Sequence record: NC_073077.1 | Strand: one strand, 5' to 3' | Source: Escherichia phage vB_Eco_Maverick | DNA length: 42,624 nucleotides | Shown: one piece after another, positions 8,601 to 42,624 of the stretch | Layout: the number at the start of each line of letters is the position of its first letter | How positions within the stretch are numbered: the first letter of the stretch is position 1 | The notes under the pieces: model-generated | What the model was told of the DNA's origin: nothing | Databases searched by the model: none | The model's input: only the letters and a program-made list of their open reading frames with translations | Translations under genes and position numbers: made by a program

Positions 8601-9429
8601 CGCCACGTACAGCCTTAAGGCGGGCGTGACGTACAACGGGACTTACTACGATGCAGGTATGCAGCTTTCCGTTGTGACGTCGGGCAGCGCTGTTAAATCA
8701 CGCATCGCGTTCAAGGCGGACCAGTTCTACATCATGCACCCGTCTAATGGGTCGCTTTCGTCTGCGTTTATCGTGGATGGCGGGCAGGTGTATATCAACA
8801 CGGCGCGCATTAAAGACGCATCTATCAACTTTGCGCAGATCACGGACACGCTGCAATCCAACAACTGGATTGCAGGGAGCAGGGGTTGGCGTATCGCGAA
8901 AGATGGAGGCGCGGAGTTTAACGCAGTAACGGTACGCGGCAACGTGTATGCGAATGATGGCGTGTTTAATGGTACGGTTTATGCAAGGGATGGGGTATTT
9001 ACCGGAACGGTCGAAGCTACCAGCTTTGTCGGTGACGTTGCAAATATGTGTGTTATTGGTGCGAAAGCAATACCTAACACAGGCAGGAATGGATCGAGGT
9101 CGTGGTCAGTGACTTTCAACGACTCGTCCAGGTCATCAAAACTAAAAGACTTTGTGTTGTTGTTAAGTTACTCACTGGTTGGGTACACCGCAAGCCAGTC
9201 AAGCCGCATTGCTGTTACCGCCAATATTGGTGGGAAAGTAGTCTCAAGGACTATTGAGCGGGCGGCAAGCGGAAACGCAATCCATACGATGATTCCTTTA
9301 GCTGCGAAAGGTGTAACGGCGGGAAGTGTAACAATTACAGTGACGGAAGAGTATACAAACGTCTACGGCAGCACATTGCATCCATCGGTAATATTAATGA
9401 CTCGCGGCACTGGTAGCTGGTCGCAATAA
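5611..9429 (+). CDS. host specificity protein J-like (central tail fibre / tail tip)
   Basis: 1272-aa ORF as last large gene of the tail operon; coiled-coil stretch and beta-rich C-terminal third typical of J-type receptor-binding proteins; translationally coupled to the I-like gene. Confidence 0.85.
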   Translation: MTIIYDVTGHKGGGGKQHTPQETPDSLHSLAKIRILLALGEGEFESITSDSELRQRVYLDGTPIQNADLSENFPGARVEFRPGTQHQDVIHGFSAVESEQSVGVKLENGTPWVRQINDTSLDAVRIRIGIPALYTNEDNGDLVGGRIDYKIVVYTDNADPREFRFAAVGKTMSLYERDHRIELPPNVNTGWRVEVHRITADSTSAKVVNDIRVQSITEIIDARLRYPLTALLFVEFDAKAFQNIPRVSIKCKGRKVLIPNNYDPINHTYSGDWDGTFKRAWTDNPAWHWYDICITERFGLGRRIKPQMLNRYALYQIAQRCDQLVSDGNGGREIRFKNDMYIQSQTDAWTVLKDLAAIFAGMTWWGNQMLNIVSDQPVAAVSHTITNASVIDGRFDYASGSQKTRYSTFAVAYGNPKNHYEDAIATGQRVELVRRHKINRLDITAIGCTRESEAQRRGHWALISNQLDQQVSFKVGMEGLFFIPGSVVAIADTNISGGFETRGGRLLSDPGTRTVLNTDSEITFRPGDKFLVRTDSGNVETREIASVNGNKVTLKTALDADPIPDQPFCVDGNDIQLQKFRITDLEYDDSTSTFSVRGIEYNDSKYDAVDNGARLDPGIFTQVPDGVMKGPESVTITPSQISSQGQLITNVDIVFPPVKDAVVYEIQWRRTSLQNMEIQWGNDWVNIPRTASNGAHIPNVFSGNYQARVRAIGMGEISSPWVSSAITPIEGRLGGLNAPIITNAISGLHQILWKWNHNNAATDISYTELEVRKTGETEWKFLTNVPYPGSDYAQTSLEFGIYQQLRARVADKIGNLSDWSAPFEGQVSDKVDEYMKGLDDEFLTSEDGKHFQEAINTIPQGIYESMLTDAQQLFNARAEYKGIYAEIKVAYNVAADANKAVAQLETLIGTRLEDAEAAIHTLQTAQSTQEQAFAQYQQTVAAKFSEQEAAIQQVQTATADVAGALAEYKTQVAAQFGQQSAAIEQKMTSSFNHSGGSATYSLKAGVTYNGTYYDAGMQLSVVTSGSAVKSRIAFKADQFYIMHPSNGSLSSAFIVDGGQVYINTARIKDASINFAQITDTLQSNNWIAGSRGWRIAKDGGAEFNAVTVRGNVYANDGVFNGTVYARDGVFTGTVEATSFVGDVANMCVIGAKAIPNTGRNGSRSWSVTFNDSSRSSKLKDFVLLLSYSLVGYTASQSSRIAVTANIGGKVVSRTIERAASGNAIHTMIPLAAKGVTAGSVTITVTEEYTNVYGSTLHPSVILMTRGTGSWSQ

Positions 9430-9435
9430 GCAAAT

Positions 9436-9462
9436 AGCCCCTCGCTGGAGGGGCTATCTTTT
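9436..9462 (+). terminator. rho-independent terminator after the J-like gene
   Basis: agcccctc-gctg-gaggggct perfect 8-bp stem followed by atctttt. Confidence 0.75.
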
Positions 9463-9703
9463 AATAATCAATGACGCAGTTTGATGGGGAGCCAATCCTG
9501 CGGTGTTCGTGGCTAATCTCCTGACACCACTGACCGGTATAGGGTAGCTTTTCGGTATCGTAAACCAAAGACCCGTCTTCATGTCGCTCAATAGGCTTAG
9601 GTATTACGCCGGAATTCGGAACGCCGGTGTCTAAGCCGTTGCCACATGCTGCCATTAGAAGGCACGCCGCTGGTATTATCAGATTTTTGATTAAAGTTTT
9701 CAT
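9461..9703 (-). CDS. small lipoprotein, Cor/Llp-like superinfection-exclusion candidate
   Basis: 80-aa product MKTLIKNLIIPAACLLMAACGNG with signal peptide and lipobox LMAAC; GGAG Shine-Dalgarno 8 nt upstream of the ATG at 9703; sits head-to-head next to the receptor-binding J gene. Confidence 0.6.
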   Translation of the reverse strand: MKTLIKNLIIPAACLLMAACGNGLDTGVPNSGVIPKPIERHEDGSLVYDTEKLPYTGQWCQEISHEHRRIGSPSNCVIDY

Positions 9704-9783
9704 GGTATCATCTCCGGTATTGGGTTGAGTTTTAGTATTACACCGCTCAATCAAGAATGCAACCAATTTATGAGGATTCAGCT

Positions 9784-11439: not shown

Positions 11440-11502
11440 TATGTGGTCCTTTTTATGGGAGGCCGTATTGCCTCCCGACGCGTTAACTATAGTGCAACCA
11501 AC

Positions 11503-11973
11503 CTATTGGTTGCAAGTGAATTTTGCAACGTTTATTGCGTAAATTTTCGGGACCAAATCGCTACACGCCCGACGAATTGCCGCGATGTTCTTCTCGCAAT
11601 CTTCAATGATGACCAGTTCCGACACGTCTGCATAGCAGACCATCTTGAACACGGCACACGCTTTAAACTCTGGCGGCGGGGTGTCATCCAGCATGTGGCG
11701 CATAAACAACCGGCCTGTCGGGAATACTTCCAGTTGCTCGGCGGTAGTCTCCCAACATTCGCGCTGCCGGTTAGTCAGATACGCTATCTCGAAGCCTTGC
11801 TCTTTGTACATGCGCAGCAGCGGCAGCATATCCATGTTCAGGTCTTCGCGTACGTGCGCTTTGTGCCACTTTGCCCAAAAGGTTGATTTCGTTTTTATCC
11901 CCGGCACCAGGTCGGCACGCGCATCGCTTGAGCCATTAATAACGCCATCCAAATCGCAAATCAGTAATTTCAT
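11503..11973 (-). CDS. HAD-superfamily phosphatase-like protein
   Basis: N-terminal MKLLICDLDGVI matches HAD motif I (DxDG); downstream Thr and acidic motifs present; 156 aa. Confidence 0.6.
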   Translation of the reverse strand: MKLLICDLDGVINGSSDARADLVPGIKTKSTFWAKWHKAHVREDLNMDMLPLLRMYKEQGFEIAYLTNRQRECWETTAEQLEVFPTGRLFMRHMLDDTPPPEFKACAVFKMVCYADVSELVIIEDCEKNIAAIRRACSDLVPKIYAINVAKFTCNQ

Positions 11974-13370: not shown

Positions 13371-13398
13371 ATTAAAAAGGGCGTCCAAACCGGACACC
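13371..13398 (-). terminator. minus-strand rho-independent terminator overlapping the downstream promoter
   Basis: On the minus strand gggtgtcc-ggttt-ggacgccc (one G-U pair) followed by ttttt; lies between the -10 box at 13402-13407 and the RBS of gene 13112-13354. Confidence 0.5.
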
Positions 13399-13401
13399 CT
13401 C

Positions 13402-13430
13402 AATATAATGCAACCAATCTAATTATGCAA
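13402..13430 (-). promoter_or_regulatory. sigma70-like promoter TTGCAT-N17-TATATT embedded in tandem ATTGGTTGCAT motifs
   Basis: Minus-strand reading aTTGGTTGCATaattagaTTGGTTGCATTATATT; -35 and -10 hexamers separated by 17 nt. Confidence 0.4.
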
Positions 13431-13435
13431 CCAAT

Positions 13436-16346: not shown

Positions 16347-16625
16347 TTAAGCGACCAATTCAGCAACCAATAAATCACAGTCGGCTATGTTGTCGATGAC
16401 GCGAACGTCCGCACCGCGGCGGGCCATCCGCTCATGTTCTCGTACCTGGTGCGGCTTCGGTTTGCCTCCGGGGCGCTTCACTTCGACGAAAACTATTCTG
16501 CCGTTGATGATGATAATCAGATCGGGAGCACCTGCGCGCCCCTCCCAAGCAACTTTGCGGCAGAATCCGCCGACGGCTTTCACCCGTCTCATCAAGTGAC
16601 TTTGAATCTTGCCTTCTGGTGTCAT
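16347..16625 (-). CDS. VRR-NUC domain nuclease
   Basis: 92-aa product MTPEGKIQSHLMRRVKAVGGFCRKVAWEGRAGAPDLIIIINGRIVFVEVKRPGGK with PD...E-x-K core; ATG overlaps the polymerase stop (TAATG). Confidence 0.7.
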   Translation of the reverse strand: MTPEGKIQSHLMRRVKAVGGFCRKVAWEGRAGAPDLIIIINGRIVFVEVKRPGGKPKPHQVREHERMARRGADVRVIDNIADCDLLVAELVA

Positions 16626-19924: not shown

Positions 19925-20014
19925 TTTCCAATTCCTCATTTTCACATGCATCGGGGTTATTGGAAGCCACCCCGTTCGGCTTGGTTGCCAATTTACTTGG
20001 TTGCGCCTAAGCGG

Positions 20015-20257
20015 TCAAGCATTTTCATTAAAAAGATTTCTGGTAACGTAGTCGGTAGCGTTCTCGATCCAGCTTAATGGCGGGCGGTCGATATTCTTCT
20101 CCACCCAATCGGCGGCAGCGTCGCTATAACCGTCATCCAGCCAGCGGGTCGGATGCCGAATCATCCACGCCACCATTAACACGCCATGCACACAATGCAG
20201 GATAAAGCACAGCGCGCCGATAACAAACATCAATAATATTGCGAATACTTTATTCAT
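20015..20257 (-). CDS. small membrane protein
   Basis: 80 aa with two hydrophobic helices (VFAILLMFVIGALCFILHCVHGVLMVAWMI). Confidence 0.4.
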   Translation of the reverse strand: MNKVFAILLMFVIGALCFILHCVHGVLMVAWMIRHPTRWLDDGYSDAAADWVEKNIDRPPLSWIENATDYVTRNLFNENA

Positions 20258-22812: not shown

Positions 22813-23048
22813 GTATATCTCCGATTGGTTAAGTTTAGGTGTCGGCAGTTAACTTCGTCGGTGGCCTTAACATATTGCCAGGTTGCGCGTTCTCCCGTTC
22901 GGGTAGTGGACCTGGTTATATAATCACGGTTGGGAATCCTGACACTTCGATCCGGCCCCTGCGTTGCCCCTCTCCAGTTTGCGTCCTGCATCCTGTCGAC
23001 GGAGTGAATGATAGATTGGTTGCAGGATGGGTGTCAACAACTAATTTC

Positions 23049-23112
23049 AAAAAAAAAGCGCCGAGGCAAAATGCGACGGCGCTAACCAATAAGAGACAAT
23101 GAGACGGGAATT
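23049..23112 (-). ncRNA. candidate small RNA (~60 nt) ending in a strong minus-strand terminator
   Basis: Minus-strand hairpin gcgccg-N13-cggcgc followed by U9 (plus 23049-23082) with an upstream minus-strand TTGAAA-N17-AATAAT promoter (plus 23113-23141); no minus-strand gene lies upstream. Confidence 0.25.
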
Positions 23113-23141
23113 ATTATTACACGCGTGCGCGCCCGTTTCAA
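23113..23141 (-). promoter_or_regulatory. candidate sigma70-like promoter for the putative small RNA
   Basis: Minus strand TTGAAA (plus 23136-23141), 17-nt spacer, AATAAT (plus 23113-23118). Confidence 0.3.
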
Positions 23142-23213
23142 TATCCAAAGGATTTGACACCATGCAGTTTTAGGTGTAGTTTCGTTGGTCATTAACCAAC
23201 AGGAGACTGAATT

Positions 23214-23543
23214 ATGAATATCAAAGAAGCAATTGAAGTGTTATCTAATGCAATCCGCGGCGAAGCGGGTAAATCCTGGTATTACACAAATGCGGTGGAT
23301 ACTCTGTTATTTGAAGTGTCCAGATTATCGCGTGCTGAGAAGGAGCTTACCGCGAAGCTGGAATTGCTCAACGGCACGGCAGCAAGCAAGCTGCAAAAAC
23401 ACAATGAAGAAATGGAAGAATACAAAAAGCAGGTTATCCGTTTGCGCAATGAGGGAAAGTCATGGGCAATGATCGCCGAGTTGACCGGAATTAATCAGAG
23501 CACAGTGCGCTCCTGGGTACGCAATAATAAAACTTCAAAGTAA
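23214..23543 (+). CDS. helix-turn-helix DNA-binding protein (putative transcriptional regulator)
   Basis: 109 aa with coiled-coil centre and C-terminal HTH (KSWAMIAELTGINQSTVRSWV); AGGAG Shine-Dalgarno; first gene of the plus-strand block. Confidence 0.55.
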   Translation: MNIKEAIEVLSNAIRGEAGKSWYYTNAVDTLLFEVSRLSRAEKELTAKLELLNGTAASKLQKHNEEMEEYKKQVIRLRNEGKSWAMIAELTGINQSTVRSWVRNNKTSK

Positions 23544-23553
23544 GGCAACGGCA

Positions 23554-25818
23554 ATGAGCTTGATTAAATTCGCTGTAACACGACCCGCTAAAAAAGGCGA
23601 AAAAGCCAGGGCGGAAAACTTCCAGATGACTACCGAAGAGTTTTTCGAATTTATCAATGATGCGAAAGAAATCTCCTCGGTGCATATCAACAAAACGGAA
23701 GATAAAGCGGAGTATGCGCGCCGCAAGCGTAAGGCTGATGGGATTGTGGCTTATACCAGTGACGGATTACGCCGCAAGACCAGTGCGGTGGATCGCTCGA
23801 TCCTGTTCTTCGATATTGACCGTACCGACACCCGCACCCTGCGCCGCTGCCGTAAGGCGTTCATCGACGCGGGACTGGAACATGTATTTCACACCACAAC
23901 CGGCGATCGCCACCCGCTGAAAGGTGGCACGCGTTGCGCTCGTTTCCTGGTGCTCACTGACAAGCCTGTACCGGCTGAAGACCTGGGCCGCGTCCAGTAT
24001 GCACTATTACACCAACTGGGCCTGTCAGATGTGGACTTCGACGATTGCACGAAAGACACAAACCGCCTTATGTACCTGCCTCACCAGCAATCGGTTGTTA
24101 AGTGTCACTACGGCAAACGTGCCCGCGTCCGTCGTCTGCTGCGCCTGGCGGATAAGCTGGGAGTGGAAAAAGAGGAAGTACGCCGCGAACTAACCCAGGG
24201 CGATGACGGCGTGGCGGACGGCATTCTGGATTGGTGCTTCCAGGCCGGATTCGAACCGCTGTCGTCCGGTCGTGGTTATGAAGTGCCATGCCCGAACGAA
24301 CATCTGCACAGCGGCGAAGGGTCGACGGCTATCATGGTCAAGGATGGCGAGATCCGTTTCAAGTGTATGCACACCGGCAACGAGTGTTGCTCGGAACTGA
24401 ACAGACACCAGCACCTGGCGCTACGTCTTATCGGGATCCCGGACCACCTGAACGTCGAACCGCACAACATGTCACGTAAGCAAATAGCCGCCATCCTCCC
24501 AGGTCTGGACGACGAGGAAGTGGAATCGTGCTATGAACATATCGTTGATGCGGTTGGCGACGGCGACGAGTACGGCGGATGTACGGACGCAGACCTGGAC
24601 AACGAGCCGGTTGCACTGTTCAGTAAACACGACCCGATCATCGAGGGGTTGATTAACTTCAAATCGACCTGGTATATGGCGGGCGAGTCGAACATCGGTA
24701 AATCGTTCTACGTGCTGGGCCAAATGGGTGCTGTTGCCGCGGGTATTCCGTTCGGTGGTGCGAAGGTCGTCCAGTCTCATTGCTTCTATTTCGACGCGGA
24801 AGGTGGCGAAGCCTCCAACCAGCGTAAGGAAGCATTGCAGATTAAATATGAGCACGACCTGGACAAGCTGCACATTATCGATCTGCAATCACGCGGCTGG
24901 GATATCACCAGCAAATCCGGCTTGCGTGAAGTTATCAGCTTCATCAACCGCACCGCTAACGGCGAGCCGGTTGGCCTGGTGGCGTTCGACTCACTCAACC
25001 AGACTGTTGCGCTGCGGTCCGCCGATGCTAAACCGTTCGACGAGAACAACGCCAGCGATATGGGCGAAGTGGTCAAAGCGCTGAAGGCCATTGCGGAAAA
25101 TACAGGCGGCAGTGCGGGCGTCATCCACCACCCGGCGAAAGGTGCAAACGGCAGCAGATCCCCCCGCGGGTCCGGCGCGCTGCATGGTGCTGTTGATTCT
25201 GCGTTCTTCCTGGAACAGCCGGACGACAACCAGCCCGGACAACTGAACCTGTATCACGAGAAGGCACGTAACGGCATCAAGCAAGCGCCGCGCGGATTCG
25301 TCCTGCTCAAGTGCAAGGTTAAGGTGGATCTCCGCAAGTCCGAGGCGTTCGAAGCCCACCAGTCCACCAGCACCGGGCCGGACTTCGGTGACGTCGTTGC
25401 CGGTTGGGACGTCAAGCCGATTGCATCCACGCCTCGCGACGAGACTCTTTACCTCGTACCTGTCGCCCTGGCACCGTTCGCTATCGAACAGGCGAAGGCA
25501 GCGGGCAAGGCCGCAGTTAAGGAAGAGAACACCGCCGGACCGCGCACCGAAAAAGAAAAGGTACTTTACGCGGCCCTGGAAAAACTGATGGAAGATAACC
25601 CGGACCATACCGGATTCAGCAAATCGGCAATTGTCCGCCAGGCTGGGCTTGCGAAAGGTGGCACATCGACGAAGGCAATTGACGATATGGTCGAGCGCGG
25701 CGTGCTAGGTTTTTATACAGACCCACACACCGGGGCCATCTATGGGTCGTCGAATATCGTCATCAAAACGAATATACCCATCACGCTTTCGGCGACCGAC
25801 GACGACCTGAAAGATTAA
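23554..25818 (+). CDS. DNA primase-helicase (primase-polymerase-like N-terminus, RecA/DnaB-type ATPase, C-terminal DNA-binding region)
   Basis: N-terminal acidic motif FFDIDRTD and a Cys/His cluster (CPNEHLH...C..H); Walker A GESNIGKSFYVLG and Walker B LVAFDSLNQ; C-terminal winged-helix-like segment FSKSAIVRQAGLAKGG. Confidence 0.75.
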   Translation: MSLIKFAVTRPAKKGEKARAENFQMTTEEFFEFINDAKEISSVHINKTEDKAEYARRKRKADGIVAYTSDGLRRKTSAVDRSILFFDIDRTDTRTLRRCRKAFIDAGLEHVFHTTTGDRHPLKGGTRCARFLVLTDKPVPAEDLGRVQYALLHQLGLSDVDFDDCTKDTNRLMYLPHQQSVVKCHYGKRARVRRLLRLADKLGVEKEEVRRELTQGDDGVADGILDWCFQAGFEPLSSGRGYEVPCPNEHLHSGEGSTAIMVKDGEIRFKCMHTGNECCSELNRHQHLALRLIGIPDHLNVEPHNMSRKQIAAILPGLDDEEVESCYEHIVDAVGDGDEYGGCTDADLDNEPVALFSKHDPIIEGLINFKSTWYMAGESNIGKSFYVLGQMGAVAAGIPFGGAKVVQSHCFYFDAEGGEASNQRKEALQIKYEHDLDKLHIIDLQSRGWDITSKSGLREVISFINRTANGEPVGLVAFDSLNQTVALRSADAKPFDENNASDMGEVVKALKAIAENTGGSAGVIHHPAKGANGSRSPRGSGALHGAVDSAFFLEQPDDNQPGQLNLYHEKARNGIKQAPRGFVLLKCKVKVDLRKSEAFEAHQSTSTGPDFGDVVAGWDVKPIASTPRDETLYLVPVALAPFAIEQAKAAGKAAVKEENTAGPRTEKEKVLYAALEKLMEDNPDHTGFSKSAIVRQAGLAKGGTSTKAIDDMVERGVLGFYTDPHTGAIYGSSNIVIKTNIPITLSATDDDLKD

Positions 25819-25829
25819 ATTTTGCGTGT

Positions 25830-25928
25830 ATTGGTTGCCGATATGGGAATTCCCATATCGCTAAACGGTTAATTTGTGCGCGCATTGGTTGCCATTTTGA
25901 GTGTTTTTATCTGGTCGTATTGGTTGCC
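25830..25928 (+). repeat. three direct ATTGGTTGCC repeats flanking a perfect 20-bp palindrome
   Basis: ATTGGTTGCC at 25830, 25884 and 25919; GATATGGGAATTCCCATATC at 25840-25859. Confidence 0.8.
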
Positions 25929-25978
25929 GTGTAGTGTAAATATAATGAATAGTTATGCAGTTTTATTGCATAAAGTAG

Positions 25979-26128
25979 GCGGGACAGAAAGCGGGACAAA
26001 CAGGGGGCGGGACAAAGCGGGACAGCACCCCCGTCCCGCCCCGGATGACGCGGCTTCCAGAGGAGCGGGACAGCGGGACAGCACCCCAGTCTTTCAGACT
26101 AGACGGGGGTCAACGGCCCCCCTCGTCT
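25979..26128. repeat. iteron cluster: six direct GCGGGACA octamers plus one inverted copy, ending in a 28-nt GC hairpin (internal copy)
   Basis: GCGGGACA at 25979, 25991, 26007, 26017, 26065, 26073; inverted GTCCCGC at 26033; hairpin agacgggggtcaacggcccccctcgtct at 26101-26128; TGCATAAA box at 25967. Confidence 0.85.
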
Positions 26129-26295
26129 GAGACTGAATAAAATCCGGGGATTGCAAAATACACGGCAGCATGATGCGAAGTGCGGTCGTCGATGAACTAG
26201 GCAACCAATGCGGGTTGTATTATGCTGAGTGAAAAATGCAGTTTTCAGCCACAGCTGATATCGATCAACTTTTTCATGCGCGTGATTAATATTGG

Positions 26296-26324
26296 TTGCA
26301 TTCACCCCAGCACCCTGCTATATT
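26296..26324 (+). promoter_or_regulatory. sigma70-like promoter TTGCAT-N17-TATATT inside ATTGGTTGCA motifs
   Basis: TTGCAT 26296-26301, 17-nt spacer, TATATT 26319-26324, about 28 nt upstream of ATG 26353. Confidence 0.4.
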
Positions 26325-26352
26325 GGTTGCACACCAACATGAGGACTGAACA

Positions 26353-26802
26353 ATGGAACACGAAGACCTGGTCGACGAATTGCTTGAGGCTGAGAACAAA
26401 GCTGATTTGCAAGCACGCGCAGCATACATGGTCGGCAACATTAAGAAATCGCGCCACTACGCCGGATTGCGTGTAAAGGCGCAAGAGGACCGAACAATGA
26501 AAGCATTAATCTGGAATTACACAATGGCTGTGGCGAAGCTGTACGAAGCAAAACACACAAACGGCAACGCAGACGACGCGCGCCAGGCTGTCATCCTGGC
26601 CCAGCAGGGAATCATGAACGCGTTCGACGATATGTTTGCCAGCCTGGACGAACTGGAACCGCTGCGCGTGGCAATCTGCGAATATGCGATGGCATTTGCC
26701 CGTGAGCGCCTGGCGTATCGCTTTGGTATCGGCGAGACGGCAGTGACAAACGTCGCCCGGATTAAAGCCCAGCGCGAACTATTCGCCCAGCTTGCGAAAT
26801 AA
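26353..26802 (+). CDS. hypothetical protein
   Basis: 149-aa ORF with GAGGA Shine-Dalgarno; first gene after the iteron region. Confidence 0.55.
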   Translation: MEHEDLVDELLEAENKADLQARAAYMVGNIKKSRHYAGLRVKAQEDRTMKALIWNYTMAVAKLYEAKHTNGNADDARQAVILAQQGIMNAFDDMFASLDELEPLRVAICEYAMAFARERLAYRFGIGETAVTNVARIKAQRELFAQLAK

Positions 26803-29452: not shown

Positions 29453-29460
29453 ACAATTAA

Positions 29461-29484
29461 GCCCGGAATTAACCGGGCTTTTTA
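29461..29484 (+). terminator. rho-independent terminator after the lysis cassette
   Basis: gcccgg-aattaa-ccgggc stem followed by ttttt. Confidence 0.7.
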
Positions 29485-29666
29485 TTGCTTGACTCGCAAC
29501 CAATCAACGAGAGGAGTAATCAAGATGGCACGTAAAGATATTTGGGTATTAGCGATCTGGACCACCGCGGCTTTTATCGGCATGGTTATTTGCGAATTGA
29601 TATAGCCCGCCGCCATATGGACCGTGGTATATTGTCCACGGTCCACTAATCAGGAATTAATTAAAT

Positions 29667-35816: not shown

Positions 35817-35928
35817 CCCGTCCGCGGACCCCGACGAAGATTTGATGATTGACGTGAAAAATATGGAATGCGGCGCGAAGCTAAGGGCGCAAGTGCTGGA
35901 TTTGCAGAAAATAATTCGGGGGCTGTGA
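35689..35928 (+). CDS. o-spanin (Rz1-like outer-membrane lipoprotein) candidate
   Basis: Signal peptide plus lipobox LMLSAC, Pro-rich mature part, embedded in the +1 frame of the i-spanin candidate. Confidence 0.55.
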   Translation: MLNMLRALTALIVVLMLSACGSSNVPLMPLTESALRPPCKFDNPSADPDEDLMIDVKNMECGAKLRAQVLDLQKIIRGL

Positions 35929-35942
35929 TGGCCCCCTTTTGT
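35918..35942. terminator. hairpin terminator between convergent genes
   Basis: gggggc-tgtgatg-gccccc stem followed by tttt on the plus strand. Confidence 0.55.
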
Positions 35943-36710
35943 TAGCGCGGAATACCGCAGATTTCGTTTAACGTCTTCACGTCCAGCGCCACCGCCGTGG
36001 ATTTTGGCTTGTCAGGGTAAGGAATGAACTGTTCCACTTCAGGCCACGCCTTGATCAGCTTCTTATCGGTATTGTGCATATCCAGCACACCGGTAACGGT
36101 TAGTTTGAACGCGTCATAATTAGCTCGCAACTCGCGGCGGGCCTTGTCGTTGCGATCCAGGCACTTACAGAAATCATGGTCCGCCGGGTAGTCTACGCGA
36201 CCGCGCGGAAGATATATCGGCAGCGATTTTCCGTCCTCGTCCACTTCGCACACTGAAGCCAGCATAACTTCCTCGTACCCCGGTACGATATCACCGAGAT
36301 CGGGAGATAGCTTGTTCATATATTTCTCTTCCCAGTATCCGCGGTGCAGGCGGTATCGGTATCCATCGCCGCTCAATGATACGGTGCGAACATTACCGCC
36401 TGCGTTGATATCGAATCCGGCGCTATAAACGCTGCCGATGCCTTTTGGCCGGTCGGAGTTATAGCTATACGTCGCCTTGTCGGTGTAAACGCTAACGCCA
36501 TACATCTGCGACTGGTTATCGCGGATTTCTGCGATATATGCGCGTAACTCGGCGAACGTGCGAATGCCTTCCGGCATACAGTCCAGCGTAATGGCGTACG
36601 CCAAGTCGCGAGAGTCCATCATGATGGATTTTGCTTCGGTCGCGATTTCATGGTCGCGCAGGATGTTAGCCAGAATCTTGTTTTTAACGTCTTTTGTCAG
36701 TCTCATTTTT
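35942..36710 (-). CDS. hypothetical protein, moron-like gene on the opposite strand inside the structural module
   Basis: 256-aa product starting MRLTKDVKNKIL at ATG 36710; own promoter and leader upstream; the longer frame to 37114 is antisense to the scaffold gene. Confidence 0.55.
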
Positions 36711-36734
36711 GCGTCCTCGTTGTTGGTGTGCAAC

Positions 36735-36763
36735 CAATATATGCAACCAATACGCGGATTGCA
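36735..36763 (-). promoter_or_regulatory. sigma70-like promoter TTGCAA-N17-TATATT for the moron gene
   Basis: Palindromic TTGCAA at 36758-36763 and minus-strand TATATT at plus 36735-36740; followed by leader ggttgcacaccaaca shared with the 26353 gene. Confidence 0.4.
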
Positions 36764-36854
36764 AGCGAATTTTGCGATTATTTTTATCACTGATAATATT
36801 AGAGGCGTGAAGTCGAGCGGGTGGCCCGCTCTGCCACAATCCCAGGGGGATAGC

Positions 36855-42327: not shown

Positions 42328-42621
42328 GCGGGACGTCCCGCTTTGTCCCGCCCTGTAAAACCGCATATCTAATCACTTTCATTGCATAAACTCAAAGCGG
42401 GACAGGCGGGACGTCCCGTTTTGTCCCACCCACGAAATGTGCATACCTATTCGAATTTCGTGCATAAAACAAGCGGGACAGAAAGCGGGACAGACAAGGG
42501 GCGGGACAAAGCGGGACAGCACCCAGTCCCCGCCAGTGCTGCCGCGGTTTTCAGCCGATCGGGACAAGCGGGACAAAGCCCAGTCTTTCAGACTAGACGG
42601 GGGTCAACGGCCCCCCTCGTC
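42328..42621. repeat. iteron cluster: GCGGGACGTCCCGC palindromes, about seven direct GCGGGACA octamers, two TGCATAAA boxes, ending in the same 28-nt hairpin (terminal copy, continues into bases 1-200)
   Basis: Palindrome at 42328-42341 and 42406-42418; GCGGGACA at 42397, 42473, 42485, 42501, 42511, 42568; TGCATAAA at 42383 and 42461; hairpin at 42594-42621. Confidence 0.85.
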
Positions 42622-42624
42622 TGA

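Follow-up and report, generated by a model that had tools for sequence, protein, structure and literature searches.

One short site that ties many promoters together is a standard phage regulatory architecture. The closest described examples are the OL/OR operators of the lambdoid phages lambda and P22, with their regulators Cro and CI, and the middle promoters of phage T4, marked by the MotA box. Two further themes are the promoter-early stem-loop (PeSL) elements of T4-type phages, which Arbiol et al. reportedly described in 2010 as mobile regulatory cassettes, and the morons of lambdoid and HK97-like phages. Here we describe a 9-bp box that recurs at promoters of Escherichia phage vB_Eco_Maverick (NC_073077.1), analysed over a stretch of 42,624 nucleotides (the window), and two of these promoters, sites A and B, that share an identical 21-mer. 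The window is almost the entire genome of a virulent siphovirus of Escherichia coli belonging to the genus Dhillonvirus, for which 157 related records were available. The box follows no new principle. Literature searches on the box sequence, on Dhillonvirus promoters and transcriptomes and on HK578 promoters returned no description of it, and it is new to the literature of this group as searched.

The window resembles each of these systems in part. As in lambdoid phages, pseudo-palindromes of approximately 17 bp lie over the core of divergent early promoters, the first rightward gene encodes a small helix-turn-helix (HTH) protein with a site in its own promoter, and the repeated sites are predicted to tie several promoters to one regulator. 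As in T4, a phage-specific 9-bp box near the -35 element is combined with a host-type -10 element and may mark a temporal class of promoters throughout the genome. The resemblance to PeSL cassettes lies in a short conserved promoter module that precedes variable accessory open reading frames (ORFs) at a boundary of mosaic exchange. Like lambdoid and HK97-like morons, an Nmad5 gene and a cor-like gene (9461-9703) are antisense within the structural region and have promoters of their own; the Nmad5 gene is followed by a hairpin terminator (35918-35936), and its slot is filled by a different gene in Sodalis phage SO-1.

The repeated 21-mer and its promoters

The exact 21-mer TATATTGGTTGCACACCAACA was present at 26319-26339 on the plus strand (site A) and, as its reverse complement, at 36721-36741 on the minus strand (site B). 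This bears out the duplicated leader reported in a first-pass annotation of the window, which had placed the minus-strand copy at 36710-36742. Approximately 0.01 matches of this length were expected by chance from shuffled sequences, and in a repeat search no perfect inverted repeat of 21 nt other than the TATATTGGTTGCACACCAACA pair turned up in the window. A GAGGAC Shine-Dalgarno sequence and an ATG followed both copies, as had been stated (GAGGA 26341-26345 and ATG 26353 at site A; GAGGA 36718-36714 and ATG 36706-36704 at site B). The end assigned to the minus-strand gene, 36710, had to be corrected: 35942-36710 translates with 17 stop codons, and 35942..36706 encodes a clean protein of 254 amino acids.

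The annotation had proposed a pairwise alignment of the two leaders. In this alignment, sites A and B ran in register from the -35 hexamer to the ATG, except for one gap of 1 nt that followed ACCAAC and preceded the Shine-Dalgarno sequence. They resembled each other only in the -35 hexamer, the Shine-Dalgarno sequence and the 21-mer. Since no similarity was left outside the 21-mer and the Shine-Dalgarno sequence, the element common to both sites amounts to approximately 28 nt, with no long duplicated segment. A long duplication or a recent gene conversion was rejected on the same alignment and on the repeat search, which yielded the 21-mer alone. We also rejected an invertible segment between the inverted repeats, as no recombinase domain was present among the scanned proteins and five of five complete genomes were collinear, with the two sites in the same relative orientation in all five. 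The "resolvase" and "transposase" annotations of the HTH protein rest on the HTH itself.

Both leaders carried the same -10 hexamer, as the annotation had noted: TATATT, located 17 bp after TTGCAT at site A and 17 bp after TTGCAA at site B. The two sites have the layout of sigma-70-type promoters (TTGxxx, a spacer of 17 ± 1 bp, TAnnnT). The -35 hexamer of site A matched TTGACA at three of six positions, and a consensus scan did not pick this site. We compared 17 distinct site-A sequences, taken from five genome records and from loci that had been retrieved via the HTH gene and not via site A. The hexamers and boxes were conserved, the spacer varied at a fixed length and the -10 hexamer was polymorphic at position 3; the stretch from site A to the Shine-Dalgarno sequence was free of insertions and deletions in 15 of the 17. 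At site B, the spacer of relatives was 17 or 18 bp long. The variation at site A is the pattern expected of a real, functional sigma-70 promoter, and we read the 21-mers as the core of two predicted promoters of the sigma-70 type, comprising the -10 element, the region of the start and the initial bases of the leader.

With the usual spacing, transcription would start within the TGCAC of the 21-mer, which gives predicted leaders of 22-23 nt, unstructured, at sites A and B. A dyad of 17 bp, RTTGGT-N5-ACCAAY, spans the predicted +1 position at sites A and B and at a third site, C, upstream of the operon encoding the HTH protein and the helicase-primase, where a promoter is annotated in the HK578 record. 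Site C and the 21-mer leaders also have in common the layout TTGGT-N5-ACCAAC-Shine-Dalgarno-ATG. An element with dyad symmetry that overlaps the core promoter or the start, as is characteristic of operators, was found at all three sites.

The repeated leader is a property of the genus. A 42-nt site-A query matched 335 places in 177 records of a phage collection, and nearly every Dhillonvirus record had two. Exact matches to the 21-mer in IMG/VR were confined to contigs of 42.5-45.2 kb, the range of Dhillonvirus genomes. The pair was kept in five of five complete genomes; site A of phage GeorgBuechner differed at 2 of 21 positions.

The genes behind the two promoters were unrelated, in agreement with the annotation. 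The minus-strand gene encodes Nmad5 (PF18757, E 3e-55), and the product of the plus-strand gene at 26353-26802 had no Pfam match and belonged with its C-terminal 101 amino acids to PHROG 9839. The label "early-region gene" given to the latter is a positional guess. The designation of the minus-strand gene as a moron held up: it has its own promoter (36764-36736), lies between the spanin and scaffold genes on the opposite strand and is followed by the hairpin at 35918-35936, which is bidirectional; in SO-1, an unrelated gene, called a "possible moron" in that record, stands in the slot behind the same promoter. Identity to the window dropped from approximately 0.9 to 0.6 at the ATG of site A in five of five comparators, and likewise at site B in SO-1, 0.6 being roughly the level of unrelated sequences in this kind of alignment. 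At the few variable slots observed (site A, site B), the conserved promoter-leaders act like fixed expression sockets placed at the mosaic boundaries, with an exchangeable gene behind them.

The ORF at 26353-26802 is an in-frame fusion of a 48-amino-acid N-terminal piece with a PHROG 9839 protein that begins at residue 49 (MKALIWNY...). The near-identical record of phage vB_Eco_CS16 has two separate ORFs at this place; in other genomes, the slot at 26353 holds another small first gene or is without one.

The box family and its conservation

The two leaders do not form a private duplication linking two genes, as the annotation had implied. The 21-mer holds one box, (A)TTGGTTGC, of which the genome has 21 copies, and boxes overlap at least eight promoter-like sites. 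The expected number of exact matches to TTGGTTGC was 1.9; the longer form TATTGGTTGCA, with up to one mismatch, had 13 matches against 0.65 expected. Fifteen copies of TTGGTTGC were wholly within non-coding DNA, which constitutes 7.9% of the genome, three were no more than 16 nt from the end of a gene and three were deep in genes. The box is an asymmetric element of 9-10 bp, (A)TTGGTTGC(V), and most boxes outside the dyads of sites A, B and C are single and asymmetric. Promoter-like sites with a box were located at 9767, 11515, 13435, 16371, 20018, 23037 (minus strand), 29496 and at sites A and B, and such promoters precede most of the non-late transcription units. The placement of the box varied (at the -35 element, in the spacer at a distance of 1-7 nt from the -10 element, over +1, or as an everted pair) and both orientations were used. 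In four promoters (9767, 13435, 16371 and 26291), the TTG of the -35 hexamer is part of the box. The coordinates of the features are listed in Table 1.

Table 1. Positions of the promoter elements, boxes and associated genes in the window.
Feature	Coordinates	Strand	Remarks
Site A, upstream box ATTGGTTGC	26291..26299	+	Its TTGC begins the -35 hexamer TTGCAT (26296-26301); invariant in 17 site-A sequences
Site A, spacer, 17 bp	26302..26318	+	Approximately 13 positions vary in 17 sequences; length constant
Site A, -10 hexamer TATATT	26319..26324	+	TAGATT in some relatives; position 3 alone varies (T/G)
21-mer, copy A	26319..26339	+	-10 hexamer, box ATTGGTTGC (26322-26330), palindrome ATTGGT-TGCAC-ACCAAC (26322-26338)
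Site A, Shine-Dalgarno sequence and ATG	26341..26355	+	GAGGA (26341-26345), ATG (26353); gene 26353..26802
Site B, -35 hexamer TTGCAA	36759..36764	-	Promoter scan: TTGCAA-17-TATATT at 36764..36736
Site B, upstream box ATTGGTTGC	36743..36751	-	In spacer, ends 1 nt before the -10 hexamer; conserved in relatives L002-L005
21-mer, copy B	36721..36741	-	-10 hexamer TATATT (36741-36736), box (36738-36730), palindrome (36738-36722)
Site B, Shine-Dalgarno sequence and Nmad5 gene	35942..36718	-	GAGGA (36718-36714), ATG 36706, gene 35942..36706; antisense to late operon
Site C, promoter of HTH/helicase-primase operon	23154..23216	+	TTGACA (23154-23159), 17 bp, TAGTTT (23177-23182)
Site C, leader		+	Palindrome GTTGGT-CATTA-ACCAAC (23184-23200), Shine-Dalgarno sequence GGAGA, ATG 23214
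Candidate box-binding protein, 109 amino acids	23214..23543	+	Long helix, then C-terminal HTH; first gene of rightward early operon
Leftward promoter TTGACA-18-TATCAT	23008..23037	-	Box 23015-23023 in spacer beside the -10 hexamer; best scan match, 11/12
Box as -35 hexamer (TTGCAT), Cor-like lipoprotein gene promoter	9759..9767	-	Gene 9461..9703 (-)
Everted pair GCAACCAA-tagg-TTGGTTGC	11494..11513	.	Inside promoter TTGCAA-18-TATAGT (11515..11486, -)
Tandem boxes	13410..13435	-	First is the -35 hexamer TTGCAT, second in spacer; -10 hexamer TATATT
Tandem boxes ATTGGTTGC and ATTGGTCGC	16351..16371	-	In promoter TTGCTG-17-TATAGT
Two CTTGGTTGC boxes	19980..20004	+	Read as GCAACCAAG in spacer and at +1 of TTGACC-17-TAAATT (20018..19990, -)
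Four boxes (25830+, 25884+, 25919+, 26201-)	25830..26209	.	Non-coding region after helicase-primase gene; "region B" of SO-1
Box	29496..29504	-	Between terminator 29459-29480 and small ORF with strong Shine-Dalgarno sequence

In four other complete Dhillonvirus genomes, the 8-nt core was unchanged in all 19 boxes located in or beside intergenic DNA. The flanks of the boxes were 73-100% identical in these genomes, one of which (L005) did not align at the 29496 box. Two chance copies deep in tail genes were each mutated in one genome. On this comparison, the box cores are under purifying selection. The 29496 box was found duplicated in SO-1 and in phage bob. Three distant metagenome relatives, with a helicase-primase 66-70% identical to that of the window, had neither the 21-mer nor the palindrome, and TTGGTTGC was the top or a near-top 8-mer in their genomes. 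In distant relatives, two tandem boxes filled the spacer of the leftward promoter, one box was situated between the -10 element and the Shine-Dalgarno sequence of the HTH gene, and tandem boxes occupied the -35 element and the spacer of a promoter similar to site A.

Public annotation of these elements was sparse: the HK578 record has only three consensus promoters, all in the divergent region, and the SO-1 record has repeat regions A and B. Sigma-54 (-24/-12) and lambda CII (TTGC-N6-TTGC) patterns were rejected by inspection, as their spacings do not fit. The TTGGT...ACCAA half-sites recall host operators of the GntR/FadR type (PdhR, UxuR), whose spacers are 2-3 bp and not 5 bp. What is conserved in the phage is, moreover, the asymmetric TTGGTTGC.

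Several of the box promoters had further features of note. The Cor-like lipoprotein gene at 9461-9703 on the minus strand, located between tail genes and antisense to them, is a second moron-like gene under a box promoter; the box in this promoter extends over the initial codons of a plus-strand tail-fibre ORF at 9757. Within 13374-13435 (minus strand), a terminator-like hairpin with a T5 tract comes at approximately +5 of the box promoter TTGCAT-17-TATATT; transcripts of this promoter would be initiated within the 5' arm of the hairpin and would escape termination, and read-through from upstream would stop. Near the 29496 box, an unannotated hydrophobic ORF of 26 codons, MARKDIWVLAIWTTAAFIGMVICELI (29525-29605, plus strand), has a strong Shine-Dalgarno sequence and comes directly after the terminator, a TTGACT hexamer and the box. 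Between the divergent early promoters, the minus strand at 23041-23141 holds a promoter-like sequence, TTGAAA-17-AATAAT with an extended TG (23141-23113), and, approximately 30 nt further on, a GCGCCG-N13-CGGCGC hairpin with a T9 tract. This unit would be similar to a small RNA of approximately 60 nt, and a comparable unit was present at the same place in the distant relative L029.

The candidate binder and competing explanations

We lean towards the view that a trans-acting factor reads the box at sigma-70 promoters and most likely shuts them down. The box would be the recognition site of a phage-encoded DNA-binding protein, for which the HTH protein is the leading candidate, and binding would occlude the promoters, so that early and middle transcription would be throttled or shut off in a Cro-like manner. 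The morons Nmad5 and cor, which lie antisense within the late operon, would come under this control as well. Occlusion is the most likely effect because the boxes overlap the -35 element, fill the spacer or cover +1, and because at sites A, B and C two half-sites make up a palindrome across the predicted start. Sites A and B would probably share their kinetics, since their box arrangement is the densest and the most similar. As the box is found on at least eight promoter-like sites and the leader layout recurs at a third promoter (site C), co-regulation would span most of the non-late units instead of two genes. The co-regulation of the 26353 gene and Nmad5 that the first-pass annotation had derived from the shared leader is plausible within such a genus-wide regulon. 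In our best reading, the promoter modules also mark mosaic boundaries.

Among 28 proteins scanned with Pfam, the HTH protein was the only one with a recognisable DNA-binding domain. It matched HTH_23 and Sigma70_r4_2, both just past the cut-off (Sigma70_r4_2: 27.6 bits against 25.7). An AlphaFold2 model (pLDDT 89.9) showed a helix of 59 residues (21-79) followed by a three-helix HTH, which superposed at approximately 1 Å on the HTH domains of LuxR/NarL, resolvase and IstA with a non-significant E of approximately 1. The structure search confirmed the fold type of the predicted model and was uninformative about function. In 22 alleles, the N-terminal 45 residues were hypervariable and residues 47-106 were nearly invariant; this C-terminal invariance parallels that of the box in lineages with diverged helicase-primase and iterons. 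The N-terminal variation appears to track changes of iteron type, in the few cases available.

The distribution of the protein agreed in part with that of the box. A palindrome or box was present in the promoter of the HTH gene in the window, in four of five other Dhillonvirus genomes (all except HK578) and in three of three distant relatives, and protein and box co-occurred in every Dhillon-like genome examined. No homologues of the HTH protein were found outside the box-bearing clade. The outgroup phage PhiSTP2, which has a different first gene, had no box in its genome and also lacked the HTH protein. These data tentatively suggest the 109-amino-acid HTH protein as a possible binder of the box. 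A bolder proposal, in which it is the single global timer of a virulent siphovirus lacking its own RNA polymerase and sigma factor, is a long shot. If it were true, the protein, by reading one 9-bp box, would take the place of -35 recognition where promoters are weak (TTGCAx) and would block the early promoters that are near consensus, approximately ten units including the antisense morons would be switched together, and the hypervariable N-terminus would tie this switch to lineage-specific replication initiation.

Several observations weigh against control by a box-binding protein, or against the HTH protein in that role. The HTH allele of HK578 is strongly diverged (47% identity in the C-terminal part) and its own promoter has no box, yet HK578 retains identical boxes elsewhere. 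Serratia phage Tsm2 has no HTH homologue and still has 12 copies of TTGGTTGC, mostly inside genes, four of them within 120 bp (9373-9494), antisense to the helicase-primase gene at its 3' end; boxes without the homologue leave room for another binder or for a link to replication. The spacing of tandem boxes is irregular (9, 12, 13, 16, 17 and 31 bp) and does not fit one fixed oligomeric binding mode. Because four boxes supply the TTG of a -35 hexamer, part of the box conservation could be promoter conservation. No start-site, binding or expression data for any Dhillonvirus were found in the searchable literature.

Activation would be the converse of occlusion: a phage protein at the box would replace or assist -35 recognition at weak TTGCAx promoters of the middle type, in the manner of the T4 MotA box or of class II activators, and sites A and B would be activated together. 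The TTGC of the box is exactly 17 bp from a TAnnnT hexamer at 9767, 13435, 16371 and 26291, and the same placement occurs in the site-A-like promoters of three relatives (L026, L028 and L029). These -35 hexamers match TTGACA at three of six positions, and the presumed immediate-early promoters carry TTGACA or TTGACC; the score of the candidate protein on Sigma70_r4_2 points in the same direction. We nevertheless consider activation unlikely. The position of the box relative to the -10 element is not fixed, copies in the spacer, over +1 or in opposite orientation within near-consensus promoters should hinder RNA polymerase, and the -35 hexamer of site B is not supplied by a box. Moreover, TTG-17-TATATT promoters can work without an activator. 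It is also conceivable that the box has no dedicated binder and is a promoter consensus of the lineage, spread by duplication and recombination of promoter cassettes. That promoter and leader are kept when the next gene differs, with homology ending at the ATG, fits this explanation, as do the tandem partial copies, which resemble remnants of duplication. Copies outside the -35 and -10 elements (in the spacer, at +1, and at 11494-11513, 25830, 25884, 25919 and 26201) are, however, conserved just as strictly, and the box is retained at equivalent positions in relatives with diverged surroundings. Remnants free of selection should have decayed by the 2-17% that the flanks show. We regard this explanation, in which promoter function and recombination between the copies would keep the 21-mers identical and the modules would mostly provide homology for the exchange of accessory genes, as improbable.

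The boxes could also be sites of a replication protein (the helicase-primase or an initiator) that couple transcription units or the origin to replication, their overlap with promoters being secondary. Six boxes are grouped in the 535 non-coding bp that immediately follow the helicase-primase gene, beside the GCGGGACA iterons, and cluster likewise in relatives; the four copies in Tsm2 are at the 3' end of the helicase-primase gene, and the HTH gene is in one operon with that gene. The homologous gp45-gp46 operon of HK578 has been treated as related to replication initiation (bioRxiv 10.64898/2026.07.10.737580), which counts in favour of such a role. Most boxes, however, are dispersed over approximately ten promoter regions in 27 kb, each on core promoter elements, and it is the iterons, not the boxes, that change between lineages, as expected of determinants of origin specificity. 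A function in replication therefore seems to us slightly less probable still than a box with no binder. The palindrome directly 5' of the Shine-Dalgarno sequence at three genes could be taken as a common hairpin, UUGGU-N5-ACCAA, in the 5' leader of the mRNAs, controlling translation or stability. Its predicted folding energy (-3.4 kcal/mol, z = 0.3) was no better than that of shuffled sequences, it had no Rfam match, and an arm change at site C of the relative L002 (TTGGC) was uncompensated. With TATATT as the -10 hexamer and the usual spacing, transcription would start inside the loop and the 5' arm would not be transcribed. We give a leader hairpin almost no weight; a 5'-leader element of the mRNA was also rejected more generally, since the fold at sites A and B was weak and similar to shuffles and neither an Rfam nor a tRNA scan gave a match anywhere in the window. 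Reading of the box by a DNA-binding protein, with occlusion as its most likely outcome, remains the explanation that we prefer.

Genome context and comparison with known systems

The window was 99.9% identical to Escherichia phage vB_Eco_CS16 over the 1.6 kb compared. The plus strand encodes the late structural genes. A divergent control region lies at approximately 22.8-23.2 kb, and the replication genes extend leftward from it. The rightward arm comprises the HTH gene (23214-23543), the helicase-primase gene (23554-25818), the 535-bp non-coding region, small genes, and lysis and packaging genes. The ends of the window, 1-127 and 42498-42624, were identical, which reflects either an assembly overlap of a circular sequence or terminal redundancy; because of these 127 identical bases, the unique genome length is approximately 42,497 bp. 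Iterons of the sequence GCGGGACA were found in direct and inverted orientation at 25960-26100 and at 42328-42624 (continuing into 1-127), both non-coding. The two iteron regions are approximately 16.5 kb apart and 80-82% similar over 127-185 nt, and they correspond to repeat regions A and B of SO-1. Iterons differed in distant relatives (GGTGCC/GGCACC in L026, GTGGCA in L029) while the TTGGTTGC box was constant. The GCGGGACA regions are probably origin-type sites, and are reminiscent of the ori/crr arrangement of phage P4.

Dhillonviruses are widely used coliphages (BASEL Bas14-18, SECphi18, HK578), and several studies of phage defence depend on them. Nmad5 of Dhillonviruses has been reported as a trigger of the Tmn defence system (PMC11846954), and Ksap1 triggers KpAvs2 (PMC11564622). 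The gp45-gp46 genes of HK578 are escape loci for the defence protein OLD, and in one escaping mutant the promoter region of these genes carries a deletion (bioRxiv 10.64898/2026.07.10.737580). The map of box promoters provides a testable transcription plan for the genus and suggests the timing of triggers such as Nmad5. Sites A and B, as conserved sockets, accommodate natural swaps of accessory genes and might allow the insertion of engineered cargo.

Set against the lambdoid operators, the present phage is virulent, and no integrase or CI-like repressor was annotated or found among the proteins scanned. Its box is asymmetric, mostly single or in irregular direct tandem, and distributed over approximately ten promoter regions rather than two. 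The HTH of the putative binder, joined to a long helix, is of the LuxR/resolvase/sigma-region-4 type and does not have the Cro/CI fold. The box differs from the MotA box of T4 in that it is not fixed at approximately -30 and also occurs in the spacer, at +1 and inverted; in addition, the TTG of the -35 element is retained, and Pfam scans of 28 proteins returned no MotA-like domain. Unlike PeSL cassettes, the modules had no consistent stem-loop partner and contain an operator-like element. Since the phage is lytic, the lysogenic expression known for morons does not apply to Nmad5. Its promoter belongs to the general box family and is not private to the gene, so that this moron would be wired into the programme of the phage and would not be autonomous.

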